Shown here one piece after another: positions 26,981 to 43,983 of a DNA stretch of 64,000 nt. Under the pieces are notes generated by a model. It was not told where the DNA came from, did no database searches, and was given only the letters and a program-made list of their open reading frames with translations. The position numbers were made by a program, and so were the translations under genes. Source of the DNA: Escherichia coli 042 (GTDB lineage: Bacteria; Pseudomonadota; Gammaproteobacteria; Enterobacterales; Enterobacteriaceae). The stretch lies in assembly GCF_000027125.1 (NCBI RefSeq), contig NC_017626.1. One strand, 5' to 3'. Positions within the stretch are counted from its first letter, which is position 1, and every line of letters begins with the position of its first letter.

Positions 26981-27706
26981 TCACAGAATTAACAGGTCCT
27001 CATCAGGATCAAGCGTGGACAGAAAGTCATTCACGCCCCCGCCATTTACCAGAAAGCGGCTCATGGCTGTAAAAAGCGCAACAGGGCCGTCGATTTTGGC
27101 TTCCGGCGTGGATTTATTCGGGAAGATGTTGTCGTTTTTGTCCGGTTTTACAGTAACGTTAGACATCATCCAGTTCATGACCGGATGATTGCTGTGATGG
27201 AAACGCCCGGCATAAACCAGTGATTCCGTTTCCTTCATGGCCTCTGACAGATTGCGGACCGTCTGCGGAACCTCCACCAGCGGTATCCCTTCTTCAGCCA
27301 GTGCCAGACTGAACTGCATTGCGCTCCACGGGTCAAATCCCAGTTCCCTGAGGTTTTCACCGCCAATCCATTCCAGTAAGTCACTTTTTATCTGAGCATG
27401 ATCGATAACATCACCATCCGTCAGGATGAGCTTATCCATCTCCGCCCACTTCCGGTAAAGTTCTGCCTGCTGCCGCGAGCATCGTTCCAGCCGTCCTTCC
27501 GGAAGCCAGAATTTAAAATCAGCATGAACATGTCCGTTATCGGTTCGCCAGAGTTTTGCCGCCGCACAGATATCAATCTTATGAGCAAGGTCGACGCCGA
27601 CCCACATGGGATATGTTTTCAGCTCATGTTGTGGAGCAATGTATTCGCACTTCTCCCACTTAATCATATCCATCCAGGCAGATTCGGCAGTGACCCACAC
27701 ATTCAT
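26981..27706 (-). pseudogene. terminase large subunit, C-terminal fragment (gene interrupted by satellite insertion)
   Basis: 241-aa ORF is TerL nuclease-domain region; its first codons continue the reading frame of the N-terminal fragment at 42956-43983 across the insertion. Confidence 0.8.
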
Positions 27707-27710
27707 GTGT

Positions 27711-27717
27711 TTGGTAA
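27711..27717. repeat. left copy of 7-bp direct repeat TTGGTAA (att core) at satellite-prophage junction
   Basis: Identical heptamer at both junctions; joining the flanks restores a continuous terL frame (...VNFFTKHMNVWV...). Confidence 0.7.
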
Positions 27718-27792
27718 GAATATTTCAAGTTTTTTAAAATTGACTGTATATCAATCGTTTAACATGAAAAAACAGTCTTTATAAATCATCGA

Positions 27793-27813
27793 GCAATACA
27801 CAGCGCAATACAC
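27793..27813. repeat. tandem GCAATACAC repeats (putative integrase arm-type sites), left end
   Basis: Two copies here and two at 42804-42824. Confidence 0.5.
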
Positions 27814-27997
27814 GTATCTGTATTGTTTTAATGCTGATACACACCGTTTTTTGATACAGTGATTCGACCTACCATCGCGAAGCATTTTTTATTTCTTGTG
27901 TGTAACAATCTGACGAGGTGAGCACTCAAAGAGATAAGAGGCAGTAGAAATTTCGATCCCCCCTGAATGCAATTTTTCGTATATATATACAAAACAG

Positions 27998-28153
27998 TGC
28001 GGGTTATGCGGGTTAGCGGGTTATCTTCGCGTGCTAATTATCTTTTACTCTTTAATATCAATATGTTAAAAAACAACGCATTTAAATATCAGCCAGAATG
28101 TAACCCGCAAGACATTCAAAATAACCCGCAAACACCCCTCAAATAACCCGCAA
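27998..28153. repeat. iteron-like cluster: 3 direct and 3 inverted copies of TGCGGGTTAT
   Basis: Repeats read directly; same motif recurs at 36165-36291 next to the primase gene. Confidence 0.7.
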
Positions 28154-28232
28154 AAACATCCCTGAAAGTAGGTGCCGGTAATACTGAAAATTTATTCCAT
28201 TAAATGAGCATTGTCCTCTCTCATCCATTCCG

Positions 28233-41297: not shown

Positions 41298-41360
41298 AAA
41301 AATATCACCTATAAAAAAACCCGCCAAAAGACGGGTTGATTATATCTCATTTAATTTAGC

Positions 41361-41582
41361 TCAGGGTTTCCATTCACCTTTTACCCATTCCAGCACCTCA
41401 GATAAGCGCCAGACTTTTGTTTGTGGGCCAATACATATTTTTCGTGGAAATTTTCCTTCCTTTTCAAGTAACGATCTGTGTCTCCTGCCAAGAGCGGTTA
41501 ACCATGCACATTCATCTTCCTTAATCATCCTGTCGATTGTTTCATCATTTTCAAGTTCTTCACGCGTAACTATTTGAATCAT
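41361..41582 (-). CDS. AlpA-family regulator (second copy)
   Basis: FPRKICIGPQTKVWRLSEVLEWV motif; overlaps the 3' end of int. Confidence 0.55.
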   Translation of the reverse strand: MIQIVTREELENDETIDRMIKEDECAWLTALGRRHRSLLEKEGKFPRKICIGPQTKVWRLSEVLEWVKGEWKP

Positions 41583-42783
41583 TACTGTCACCACTAATTT
41601 GCTTATTCAGATAGTCGTACCACCAGTTCATAGCTTCTTTTTTTCTGTCCATATACTGGCTTCTGTTATAAACCCCGGCAACACCGCCTAATGTGTGCCC
41701 AAGCAACTGTTCAACCACATTATGTTCAAAACCATGATCACTTAGTTTTGTGGCAAACACTCTTCGCATATCATGCGCCGTCCATTTCTCCGAGTGTTTC
41801 ATCCTTTTCCATGTCTTACCGATAGTTACGCTTGCCGTACACTGACGCATATCAAACCCAATCACATTTTCTTTGTTACCTGTTATTTTTTTTAACGTAA
41901 CTAACCAGTTAAACATGCCATCAGGAATCGGTCTGATTATTTCCCTGCCATTTTTGCTATGATCAGCGGGAACGCGCCATAATTTCTTATCAAAATCCCA
42001 CTCTACCCAGGACGACAGTAATACTTCTGACAGTCGACAACCAAAAACTACCAGGAAACGTAAAATAATTCGGTTTTCATATGATAATTCGTGATTGTCA
42101 TAATCAGTATTAATACTTCGCCATAAATCTCTGATTTCATCATCTGTTAAAACCCTGCTTCTTCGCGCAGACTTTTTTCCCACATCACAGACCTCAAGAT
42201 CATCAATTTCATGACTAATCGCGTATTTTCTTACCCTACAAAATTTAAGCGCCTGTTTTGATATACGCAACAAAGCTCCGGCCTGTACAGGTGCTACTTT
42301 TTTTATTTTGTCAAAACACTTAATCCACATAGATATAGAGCAATCACTAAGTGGTACATGACCAATCACCGGATAAATATGTTTACCAAAGCACTGCCTG
42401 ATATGTTCTGCTCCCCTACGCTTATCCATTGCATAATTATCAAGCCAGTATTCAAGTGCCTCACGAACGGTAACAGGTTGCAAGGTGGCTTCCCGTTCAA
42501 TTTTTATCTGAATCCGTGGATCTCTGCCCTCCGCAAGCCAAGTTCGACACTGATCGCGCATCTCTCTCGCTGATTTGAGACTCAGATCAGGATATTTTCC
42601 AAGTGTCAGCCAGATGGGCGCGGTTTCCCTTCCCGCCAGTCTGTAAAAGAAAACAAAACTAACACATCCGTATTTACTGACCCGTACCGAAAGCCCGTTA
42701 CCATCAGCGATGGTTTCCTGCCTCTCACTCCTGCGTCCAAGCAGGGAACGAAGTTTTTTATCGCTCAGTTTGTTTAGCGCCAT
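41560..42783 (-). CDS. tyrosine integrase (P4-like)
   Basis: 407-aa segment beginning MALNKLSDKKLRSL...; catalytic region HDMRR...LLGH...VY; upstream part of the 807-aa ORF is read-through from terL. Confidence 0.85.
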   Translation of the reverse strand: MALNKLSDKKLRSLLGRRSERQETIADGNGLSVRVSKYGCVSFVFFYRLAGRETAPIWLTLGKYPDLSLKSAREMRDQCRTWLAEGRDPRIQIKIEREATLQPVTVREALEYWLDNYAMDKRRGAEHIRQCFGKHIYPVIGHVPLSDCSISMWIKCFDKIKKVAPVQAGALLRISKQALKFCRVRKYAISHEIDDLEVCDVGKKSARRSRVLTDDEIRDLWRSINTDYDNHELSYENRIILRFLVVFGCRLSEVLLSSWVEWDFDKKLWRVPADHSKNGREIIRPIPDGMFNWLVTLKKITGNKENVIGFDMRQCTASVTIGKTWKRMKHSEKWTAHDMRRVFATKLSDHGFEHNVVEQLLGHTLGGVAGVYNRSQYMDRKKEAMNWWYDYLNKQISGDSNDSNSYA

Positions 42784-42803
42784 GTGATTTATAACCCGTT
42801 TTT

Positions 42804-42824
42804 GCAATACACAGTGCAATACAC
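42804..42824. repeat. tandem GCAATACAC repeats (putative integrase arm-type sites), right end
   Basis: Same 9-mer pair as at 27793-27813, same orientation. Confidence 0.5.
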
Positions 42825-42955
42825 AAATGATGAAAACAGCCAGAACCTTCCAGAAAAAACAAAAACGACGAACAAGAAAAAAATCTTTTTCTTTCATTTG
42901 GTTACTAAAAAAATCAGGACAGGTCGCACTGTTGTTACGGCGTGATGTTACTTTC

Positions 42956-42962
42956 TTGGTAA
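42956..42962. repeat. right copy of 7-bp direct repeat TTGGTAA (att core)
   Basis: See left copy. Confidence 0.7.
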
Positions 42963-43983
42963 AAAAATTCACCCGCGCAGAGACCTGCTCCTTCGCTTTT
43001 TTCGCCAGACGACGCAGATCATCCCAGCGTTTACAGATGCCCAGGCCAGGATTCGCTTTCTGCCAGACCGTTTCATCAAACGGATCATCTCCCTCATCGA
43101 GCGTGTAAATGATCGCAAAGTAAGAGTCGTCTTTTACAGCGCCCTCCACGTCGCTGTTATAGCCTCGCAATACCTTGATGGCGTAATCACGCTGCTCGTA
43201 ACAAATCCCTTCCTTGTTAAAGCCAGCCGTGGTGATACCAAATAACAAGGACTGCAGACGGGCACCGGTTGCCGTTTCCAGAACGTCCCACACGTCGCGG
43301 GTTTTATGTGCATGCAGCTCATCAATAATGGCGCAGTGGATGTTCAGACCGTCCAGGTTGTTTGCATCCGAGGAAAGCGGTTCAAATTTTGATGCGCTCT
43401 GCTCCTGGTAAATCGCCAGCTTGTTGAAATCAAACAACCGCCCGAGTGTCGACCGGGCTTTTCTGACCATATTTTTGGCGTCTTCAAACACGATTCTGGC
43501 CTGGTCACGCGTGGTTGCGGCTGAATACACCTCAGCTCCGCCTTCACTATCTGCCCCCGTCATATACAGGCCGATACCCGATGACAGGGTTGATTTTGCG
43601 TTTTTACGGGCGACTTCGTTGTACGCCGTCCGGAACCGGCGCACCATCACCGGACGTCCGCTGCCATCGCTGCGCATGACAACTTCCCCGGTTTCTTCAT
43701 TGACCAGCGGAATGACAAAACCAAAAATATTAATGAGGATAAATACATGCCAGTCCATCAACTCAATGGGCTGGCCTGCCAGTGCCCCTTTTACATGAGG
43801 CACAAATTTGTAGAAATTCAGGATGTGCTGCGCACGGGGTTCACTGAAATAAATCCCCCGCTTTTCGCCGTACTTCAGATCATCAAGAAAACGCTGGCAG
43901 GCCAGGCGGACAAATTCGCCAGCAACAATTTCTCCTGCAACAACACGTTCGGCGTAGCGGATCCCGTCAGCCACTTTTGCCAT
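42956..43983 (-). pseudogene. terminase large subunit, N-terminal fragment (interrupted by satellite insertion)
   Basis: First 340-345 residues of the 807-aa ORF are TerL ATPase-domain sequence; the frame then runs through satellite DNA into the integrase. Confidence 0.8.

Follow-up and report, generated by a model that had tools for sequence, protein, structure and literature searches.

The closest described systems are two kinds of PICI. Helper-embedded PICIs (HE-PICIs) were catalogued by Tommasini, Mageeney and Williams (2023, NAR Genom Bioinform 5:lqad036; PMC10111431), and include the group A_Terminase_1_246, a 15-kb size class targeting the terL gene of lambdoid E. coli prophages. In the published model, the late gene of the helper has to wait for the excision of the satellite. 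HE-PICIs carry a doubled motif, tgTGTATTGCantgTGTATTGCa, as two co-oriented copies located 81±2 bp upstream and 132±2 bp downstream of the attP centre. The only HE-PICI tested, Eco567.11capE (11capE), is embedded in, and has the same orientation as, one of its helper's late genes, the capsid gene E. The whole composite was excised and replicated, and the satellite was then out in 42–98% of copies by 2–3 h. No virions were obtained from this model composite, and many HE-PICI helpers appear truncated (PMC10111431).

The prototype of the capsid-forming PICIs (cf-PICIs) is EcCIEDL933 (Alqurainy et al., 2023, Cell Host Microbe; preprint 10.1101/2022.09.08.507074), a 15-kb element without tail or lysis genes, whose chromosomal site is flanked by roxA and phoQ. 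With the phage HK106 it forms small capsids and takes the helper tails. EcCIEDL933 particles are still produced with a terL mutant of HK106, and packaging mutations in one partner spare the other. The HE-PICI and cf-PICI literatures are linked only implicitly. A further parallel is provided by intervening elements such as skin in sigK, which, as outlined in PMC10111431, split a gene that is restored by precise excision at a defined stage. At the locus described here, by contrast, it is a gene of another mobile element that is interrupted, and the satellite rather than the cell would profit from the switch.

Integration into the helper terL

The window, a 64-kb stretch of the Escherichia coli 042 genome, contains a lambdoid, HK97-head-type prophage beside zinT, here called the helper. 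Its terL is in two parts, with an element of 15,238 bp between them:

42963-43983, minus strand: helper terL N-terminal (ATPase) fragment, codons 1 to about 343; phrog_9, E=1e-135; 99% identity to residues 1-346 of PhiR49_2 TerL
42956-42962, minus strand: attL core TTACCAA; att identity 'ttaccaa' as in the published A_Terminase_1_246
42804-42823, minus strand: doubled arm motif TGTATTGCacTGTGTATTGC, the int-proximal attP arm, +136 to +155 from the core centre
27793-27812, minus strand: doubled arm motif TGTATTGCgcTGTGTATTGC, -98 to -79 from the core centre
27711-27717, minus strand: attR core TTACCAA, repeating the attL core; its flank agrees with the published attR alignment
26981-27710, minus strand: helper terL C-terminal (nuclease) fragment; phrog_2699, E=8e-86

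The first 345 residues of the open reading frame at 41560-43983 (minus strand) are TerL, and are followed in frame by a tyrosine integrase; the frame at 26981-27706 (minus strand) is the TerL nuclease C-terminus. Rejoining the halves at TTACCAA gives a TerL of 585 residues in a clean frame. The split frames, the 7-bp direct repeat at the borders and the rejoined frame bear out the original prediction that the prophage terL is inactivated by an insertion. The prediction also called it the only terL of the prophage, a claim that can be checked for the 64-kb window alone. The insertion point, at about residue 343, is inside the Pfam domain TerL_nuclease (residues 283-563 of the rebuilt protein). 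The position 246 in the group label refers to Pfam Terminase_1, a numbering that is not reproducible because the current Pfam splits this family into TerL_ATPase and TerL_nuclease.

The element belongs to the HE-PICI group A_Terminase_1_246. It has in common with the published group the attL, the attR, the 'ttaccaa' core, the doubled TGTATTGC arm motif, the size class and the target, and the catalogue remark 'terminase/int fusion' fits it too. Only two copies of the doubled motif are found in the window, and their positions are within 2–3 bp of the published distances, with the measuring convention deciding (+134 if the 'tg' prefix is counted). BLAST matches in UMNF18 and CP016546 enclose the catalogued members Eco146.15 and Eco4041.15. 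The best match among complete genomes has 98.5% identity over 95% of the region, and the exact variant may therefore be absent from the published catalogue. There is no difference of substance from the group, and the element is another copy. The finding of a satellite that splits terL is thus a rediscovery, since this very arrangement appeared in the 2023 catalogue under the name "helper-embedded PICI" (PMC10111431).

The integrase is 50% identical to that of 11capE, compared to 42% for that of EcCIEDL933. This pairwise identity, together with the catalogued near-identical elements in UMNF18 and CP016546, points to membership of the HE-PICI clade.

Gene content of satellite and helper

The satellite int, alpA and primase genes are on the minus strand, co-oriented with the helper late genes. 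The zones follow in the order Integration (int and two AlpA-like genes), Bro (BRO-N), Replication (DUF4222, primase and SSB) and Late (major capsid protein to TerL):

41560-42780, minus strand: tyrosine integrase, 406 residues; phrog_1
41361-41594 and 41019-41327, minus strand: two AlpA/HTH_17-like excisionase-regulator genes; phrog_2790, E=2e-13 and 1.5e-34
40383-40961, minus strand: BRO-N/anti-repressor-like gene; phrog_2593, E=7e-86; BRO-N domain annotated in the relative L001
38430-40380, minus strand: variable remainder of the Bro zone, with small genes (from tblastn against EcCIEDL933, the L001 annotation and PHROGs)
39714-40037: within this remainder, truncated homologue of a 247-residue EcCIEDL933 protein
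39574-39771, plus strand: likewise, YlcI/YnfO-like gene
about 39171-39329: likewise, Icd-like gene
38430-38729: DUF4222 gene
36313-38433, minus strand: DUF927 primase/replicase; phrog_1139 (DNA primase), E=3e-176
36167-36290: iteron cluster just downstream of the primase, six copies of GCGGGTTA in both orientations; putative ori
35677-36102, minus strand: SSB; phrog_44; 70% identity to EcCIEDL933
35365-35673, minus strand: PerC-family regulator; phrog_994/10396; 60% identity to EcCIEDL933
33086-34255, minus strand: HK97-fold major capsid protein; phrog_10, E=1.5e-92
32471-33031, minus strand: prohead protease; phrog_80, E=1.4e-57
31255-32463, minus strand: portal; phrog_12, E=1e-118
30963-31262, minus strand: head-tail connector/adaptor (Ad1), the sole head-completion gene; phrog_40, E=9.5e-29
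30523-30963, minus strand: HNH endonuclease; phrog_144, E=3.6e-45
29878-30234, minus strand: TerS (P27 family); phrog_83, E=1.3e-38
28233-29894, minus strand: TerL, 553 residues, intact; phrog_9, E=4.5e-181
27980-28160: second iteron cluster between satellite terL and attR, six copies of GCGGGTTA

No terminator-like hairpin was found on the minus strand between the terL N-fragment and int, and read-through from the one into the other is plausible. Such a hairpin is present after each of the alpA-like genes, and read-through past the integration zone would therefore need antitermination. The first iteron cluster is placed relative to the primase as in PICIs, which suggests that it is the ori. 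Over 155 bp, the second is 80% identical to the sequence that immediately follows the primase in EcCIEDL933.

From DUF4222 and primase to TerL, the genes follow one another as in EcCIEDL933. Identity between the two elements is high for TerL (93.5%), TerS (89%), HNH (84%), primase (82%) and portal (81%), and lower for the major capsid protein (63%), protease (62%) and connector (57%). In contrast to EcCIEDL933, the element is integrated in a prophage gene, and has a BRO-N gene, a second AlpA-like gene and the extra iteron cluster near attR. The original prediction gave the satellite its own TerL, TerS, HNH and capsid genes; all are found, at full length compared to EcCIEDL933. With 11capE it shares the embedding in a helper late gene, the carriage of a homologue of the interrupted gene, the arm motif and the layout of Integration, Bro, Replication and Late zones. 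However, 11capE is only 11 kb long, has neither terS nor terL and presumably uses the cos machinery of its helper, whereas the element described here has a complete capsid and packaging set of its own.

The int, alpA and primase genes, and the satellite's own major capsid protein, protease, portal, HNH, TerS and TerL, are features of cf-PICIs, and its length fits their range of 10–18 kb. Of the cf-PICI pair of adaptor/connector and head closure, only the connector is present; PMC10085698 has a scheme under which the element would count as a 'Type B' cfPICI (10-of-11). In EcCIEDL933 the head-closure gene is between portal and connector. In the satellite none was found after the portal or elsewhere, and the head-closure protein of EcCIEDL933 matches a single gene in the window, that of the helper (at 23063-23380, 52% identity). 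No open reading frame in the 15,238 bp matches a tail or lysis family in the PHROG search. The prediction that the satellite needs tails from elsewhere thus agrees with its gene content, but the need probably goes further: without a head-closure gene, its capsids may not join tails unless the helper protein is supplied, which points to an extra dependency on the helper.

The helper is collinear with the phage PhiR49_2 (96.5% identical at the nucleotide level over 15 kb), and most of its head and tail proteins are 91–100% identical (tblastn). In addition to terL, the following were identified:

45007-46740, minus strand: lysis cassette (holin, YdfR, lysozyme, Rz); full-length PhiR49_2 matches, 79–99% identity
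44614-44964, minus strand: HNH; 40–41% identity to the satellite and EcCIEDL933 HNH
43983-44465, minus strand: TerS; 97% identity to PhiR49_2
7326-26833, minus strand: portal, protease, major capsid protein, connector, head closure (23042-23380), tail V/G/T/H/M/L/K/I/J, Lom, Stf and tail-fibre assembly; all full-length frames

Genes for a CI-like repressor, cII, O and Q are also present. As predicted, the tail module, head genes and lysis cassette are intact, the frames from holin to Stf being full length compared to PhiR49_2. The integrase end and the outer att site of the helper are located beyond the window, and the intactness of its genes holds for the part within it.

The two HNH-TerS-TerL sets (satellite 30963-28233, prophage 44964-43983) are 14.1 kb apart. 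The original prediction described them as divergent modules 14 kb apart and proposed pairwise alignment, which gave 31.6% identity for TerL (using the rebuilt helper protein), 27% for TerS and 41% for HNH. The portal (29%), protease (38%) and major capsid protein (24%) are similarly distant, so that the description stands, at 24–41% identity with the capsid proteins included.

Distribution of empty and occupied sites

The rebuilt 500-bp terL junction, counted as continuous when at least 80% of its length was covered, is continuous in 905 of 5426 complete E. coli genomes, in some of them at 100% identity. It is uninterrupted also in 11 phage records. The same integrase (at least 95% identity) is found in only 35 of the 5426 genomes, and the int-attL-terL junction is present in 35. 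The arrangement is therefore not due to chance: the integrase is exclusively linked to terL, which is its dedicated site. This dedicated site is within a prophage and not in a chromosomal gene. The criterion used by Alqurainy et al. in their search for cf-PICIs was an own attachment site, never occupied by prophages (10.1101/2022.09.08.507074). The 35 junction-bearing genomes come from varied hosts and sources, and have two classes of terL 3' flank. An exact-match search of viral contigs for the excised attP junction gave no match, and a search of the literature found no follow-up experiments on the terL-embedded group.

Proposed cycle and alternative explanations

On the basis of these observations, we consider it very probable that the element is an A_Terminase_1_246 HE-PICI with a cf-PICI late module, site-specifically integrated in the terL of a lambdoid prophage, and likely that it functions as follows. 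The SOS response would cleave the CI-like repressor of the helper, and the composite would excise and replicate. Late transcription antiterminated by Q would then pass HNH, terS and the N-terminal part of terL and reach int and alpA of the satellite, and Int and AlpA would excise the satellite at TTACCAA, rebuilding the helper terL. This order of excision is modelled on 11capE. The satellite would replicate using its own primase and ori and assemble small capsids, and its own terminase, acting at the satellite's cos site, would package it. The helper would provide tails, lysis and probably the protein for head closure. That the two packaging systems are independent, and that tails are stolen, is suggested by EcCIEDL933 and HK106. 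Helper copies that retain the satellite would have no TerL, and would supply only procapsids, tails and lysis. That helper packaging waits on satellite excision is supported by its agreement with both the sequence and the published HE-PICI model (PMC10111431). The prophage had been described as packaging-disabled; its terL is indeed split, but the disability would be conditional, since the 11capE satellite excises after the composite has replicated (PMC10111431).

The locus is a natural case in which an essential gene of one mobile element is the landing site of another. Insertion in terL guarantees the satellite a co-resident tail donor and would delay the packaging of that donor. Both the landing-site idea and this very terL site were already published in 2023 (PMC10111431). 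The terL group unites two strategies that were described separately, namely embedding in a helper and self-made capsids. It is possible, though on balance we doubt it, that terL HE-PICIs are cf-PICIs that have shed the head-closure gene and depend on the helper for head closure and tails, with the split terL as a timer and the retaining helper copies as pure factories for procapsids, tails and lysis. If helper late transcription drives int and alpA, the helper terminase would appear only after the satellite has departed, and the satellite would gain a head start in packaging.

The locus might instead be a fossil, a decaying cryptic prophage with a trapped satellite, neither of them mobilised or with any working role. 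The truncated gene in the Bro zone (39714-40037) would fit this, as would a helper integrase end and outer att site beyond the window, the truncated appearance of many helpers and the lack of virions from the model composite (PMC10111431). Nevertheless, it appears unlikely, in view of the full-length helper lysis, head and tail frames, most of them 91–100% identical to PhiR49_2, the presence of the CI-like repressor, cII, O and Q genes, and satellite core genes that are all full length compared to EcCIEDL933. In addition, the two core copies and the two arm motifs are undamaged, terL can be restored in frame, and the junction is found in 35 genomes from varied hosts and sources, with two terL 3' flank classes.

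It has also been suggested that the function of an interrupted late gene may be taken over by a captured one (PMC10111431), and both TerL proteins belong to phrog_9. The satellite TerL, TerS and HNH might then replace the helper terminase in place, and the helper or composite be packaged without excision. This is very improbable when the partners are only 31.6% (TerL), 27% (TerS) and 29% (portal) identical, and a repeat search found no cos-like sequence common to the two HNH-terS regions. Moreover, packaging mutants of EcCIEDL933, whose TerL is 93.5% identical to that of the satellite, left phage packaging unaffected, and phage mutants lost phage but not EcCIEDL933 transfer (10.1101/2022.09.08.507074). 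An insert of 15.2 kb in a helper of about 41 kb (PhiR49_2 is 40,988 bp) also far exceeds the insert tolerance of about 10% in lambda-type packaging (PMC10111431). The site-specific HE-PICI insertion proposed above has one further rival, in which there was no mobile insertion, and the modules were duplicated by illegitimate recombination or by misassembly between two prophages. The presence of two homologous modules is all that speaks for it, and it can practically be dismissed: the 7-bp target repeat is precise, an integrase is at one end, the arm motifs stand at fixed distances, and such an origin is refuted by 35 independent complete genomes that share identical junctions, beside hundreds of empty sites.

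Site-specific insertion in the terminase gene

From about 7.3 kb to 58 kb, nearly all genes are carried on the minus strand, and together they make up a lambdoid prophage. Its large terminase gene (terL) is found in two pieces. The first 345 residues encoded by an 807-residue ORF (41560-43983, minus strand) are large terminase (phrog_9, E=1e-135), followed in frame by a tyrosine integrase, and a separate ORF (26981-27706) encodes a large terminase nuclease C-terminus (phrog_2699, E=8e-86). Read on the minus strand, both junctions contain the 7-bp direct repeat TTACCAA, at 42956-42962 (the attL core, on the integrase side) and 27711-27717 (the attR core). 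The insert between them is:

27718-42955: inserted element, 15,238 bp

When the two halves are joined at TTACCAA they give a 1758-nt ORF encoding a TerL of 585 residues, in which a Pfam scan identifies TerL_ATPase and TerL_nuclease domains. The rebuilt 500-bp junction occurs as a single continuous piece (coverage at least 80%) in 905 of 5426 complete E. coli genomes, some of them 100% identical, and in 11 phage records, PhiR49_2, Evi and phi467 among them. On the basis of the direct repeat, the rebuilt ORF and these continuous junctions, the element is concluded to have been placed by site-specific recombination, and its precise excision would restore terL. The original observation that an insertion interrupts terL is thus borne out by the split ORFs, the repeat and the restorable frame. 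After excision, the satellite (the insert) is predicted to have an attP containing AAATATTCTTACCAAGAAAGTAAC, and the restored terL of the helper (the prophage) would contain GAATTTTTTTACCAAACACATG. An exact-pattern search of viral contigs for this attP junction, with no mismatch allowed, gave 0 matches, which is not evidence either way.

The reading frame of the terL N-fragment stays open across the attL arm and continues into the integrase gene, which raises the question of whether the 807-residue "terminase-integrase" is a real fusion protein. The T-run in the linker is GATTTTTTTCTTG, and a run of seven T is also present in the annotated relative L001. Some published members of the same group have one T fewer (GATTTTTTCTTG), which shifts the frame, and the authors of the catalogue of helper-embedded PICIs (HE-PICIs) flag such fusions as annotation artefacts ("reannotate terminase/int fusion"; PMC10111431). 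The fusion protein is rejected for these reasons, and the long ORF is most likely an annotation artefact.

Relationship to published helper-embedded PICIs

The catalogue, by Tommasini, Mageeney and Williams (2023), describes a group, A_Terminase_1_246, of 15-16-kb elements in E. coli with the att identity "ttaccaa" (PMC10111431). The junctions in the window are the same sequences as in the published attL/attR alignments of this group. Two BLAST matches enclose catalogued members, namely UMNF18 AGTD01000001 1110992-1128184 (H8), which encloses Eco146.15, and CP016546 4485224-4502885 (H16), which encloses Eco4041.15. A doubled TGTATTGC is reported as a motif specific to the attP arms of HE-PICIs; one copy is placed roughly 81 bp upstream of the crossover and the other roughly 132 bp downstream (PMC10111431). 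The window contains exactly two copies, both on the minus strand; relative to the core centre they occupy -98..-79 and +136..+155. The satellite integrase shares 50% identity with its counterpart in 11capE, the experimentally tested HE-PICI in capsid gene E. Taken with the note on fusions, these sequence features place the satellite in a group that has already been published. The original observation is therefore confirmed, but the concept and the site had both been published (PMC10111431). Pfam has since split Terminase_1 into two families, and the "position 246" of the group name is not reproducible on the rebuilt TerL.

Of the 5426 genomes, 35 contain the integrase gene together with its att arm at no less than 95% identity, all remaining integrase matches being short and 60-80% identical. 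A probe that runs from the 5' end of int across attL into the terL N-fragment has full-length matches in 35 genomes, and about 900 more match the terL part only. Since both searches give 35 genomes, the integrase is, as judged by these matches, found only at the terL site among the complete genomes. About 3.7% of the available terL sites are occupied. Integration into the satellite's own terL was also considered; the homologous site there reads TCACCAA and has unrelated flanks, and this seems unlikely.

The helper prophage

Between the lysis genes and the tail fibres, the window aligns collinearly with phage PhiR49_2 (41 kb), at 96.5% nucleotide identity over 15 kb, and the single break in collinearity falls exactly at the satellite insertion point. 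All PhiR49_2 proteins from the holin to Stf have a full-length counterpart in the helper, which upholds the original view that its tail, head and lysis genes are intact. Upstream are genes for a Q antiterminator, an O-like replication protein, cII, an S24-type CI-like repressor and a RecE-like exonuclease. As far as the window shows, the helper is thus complete in tail, head and lysis functions and lacks only a continuous terL; its integrase end lies beyond the window. The left chromosomal flank (1-6242) carries hchA, hprS/hprR, hiuH, msrP/msrQ and zinT, with zinT adjoining the tail-fibre end of the prophage. This location may agree with that of helpers whose integration site the catalogue labels 'S', the int/att end being outside the window.

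The part of the helper that has diverged most is the receptor-binding end of the tail. Protein J (11747-15142) is about 100 residues shorter than in PhiR49_2, with an in-frame gap near residues 858-941, and the side tail fibre (8616-11021) is only 53% identical. The 10-11 kb bin has a strong AT skew (-0.41). Genes for tRNA-Arg(TCT) and tRNA-Met(CAT) lie between Q and the lysis cassette (48639-48891), and the early region contains a Mom-like DNA-modification gene (54027-54557).

Satellite genes and probable dependence on the helper

In order along the minus strand, the satellite encodes an integrase, two AlpA/HTH_17-like excisionase-regulators, a BRO-N protein, a variable stretch with an Icd-like gene, DUF4222, a DUF927 primase, SSB, a PerC-like regulator, and then an HK97-type major capsid protein (MCP), prohead protease, portal, head-tail connector, HNH, TerS and TerL. 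The assignments draw in part on how a relative with 98.5% identity is annotated. None of the ORFs inside the satellite matches a tail or lysis family. No record in the phage collection spans the satellite, and the only matches are partial, at about 76% in the capsid-portal module. A 76% match to this module is seen in LR881103.1 (H187), a 16.5-kb "Escherichia phage vB_KppS-Ant" labelled as an induced prophage, whose size and content suggest a capsid-forming PICI (cf-PICI) deposited as a phage.

The Bro-zone stretch 39165-40380 has no convincing long gene and several terminator-like hairpins. It contains:

39714-40037: truncated homologue of a 247-residue protein of the prototype cf-PICI EcCIEDL933
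39574-39771, plus strand: YlcI/YnfO-like small gene

Immunity RNAs such as C4 and isrK have been reported in some HE-PICI Bro zones (PMC10111431). An Rfam scan of 26500-45000 gave no match to P4-type immunity RNAs (C4, isrK and others) at E<=0.1. Strong terminator-like hairpins are found on the minus strand at 41318-41337 and 40985-41010, each directly 3' of an AlpA-like gene, recalling how P4-type elements control immunity through termination.

The GCGGGTTA iteron accounts for two clusters in the satellite, of six copies each in both orientations, which together make up 12 of the window's 17 copies:

36167-36290: cluster 1, 3' of the primase gene, the usual position of an origin
27980-28160: cluster 2, between the satellite terL and attR

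Over 155 bp, the region of cluster 2 shares 80% identity with the sequence that follows the primase gene in EcCIEDL933, and the cluster may be a duplicated or relocated origin.

Between the satellite and EcCIEDL933, identity is high for TerL (93.5%), TerS (89%), HNH (84%), primase (82%) and portal (81%), lower for MCP (63%), protease (62%) and connector (57%), and only 42% for the integrase. Between satellite and helper it is 31.6% for TerL, 27% for TerS, 41% for HNH, 29% for portal, 38% for protease and 24% for MCP. In these shared proteins the satellite is far more distant from its helper than from EcCIEDL933, and the two divergent HNH-TerS-TerL modules noted 14 kb apart are therefore real.

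When 11capE is induced, the whole composite excises and then replicates; satellite excision comes next and reaches 42-98% of the copies at 2-3 h (PMC10111431). Here the satellite is co-oriented with the helper late operon, and no terminator-like hairpin is found between the terL N-fragment and int, whereas hairpins do follow each alpA-like gene. The window fits the published excision model. In the work on EcCIEDL933 and its helper HK106 (10.1101/2022.09.08.507074), an HK106 terL mutant still produced EcCIEDL933 particles, and packaging mutations affected only the element that carried them, whether PICI or phage. By these results a helper lacking terL would be a competent tail donor for the satellite, and rescue of the helper by the satellite terminase would be unlikely. 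Our literature search found no experiment on a terL-embedded element, and the excision and packaging steps are inferred by analogy; the dependency originally proposed between the two elements nevertheless appears essentially right, matching both the sequence anatomy and the published model.

The dependence probably extends beyond tails. In EcCIEDL933 a head-closure gene separates portal and connector; this gene is absent from the satellite (30963-32463) and from L001. The sole homologue of this protein in the window is encoded by a helper gene (23042-23380, match 23063-23380), and from these gene contents the satellite probably needs the helper head-closure protein as well. The EcCIEDL933 and helper head-closure proteins are 52% identical, well above the 24-41% of the other helper/satellite pairs.
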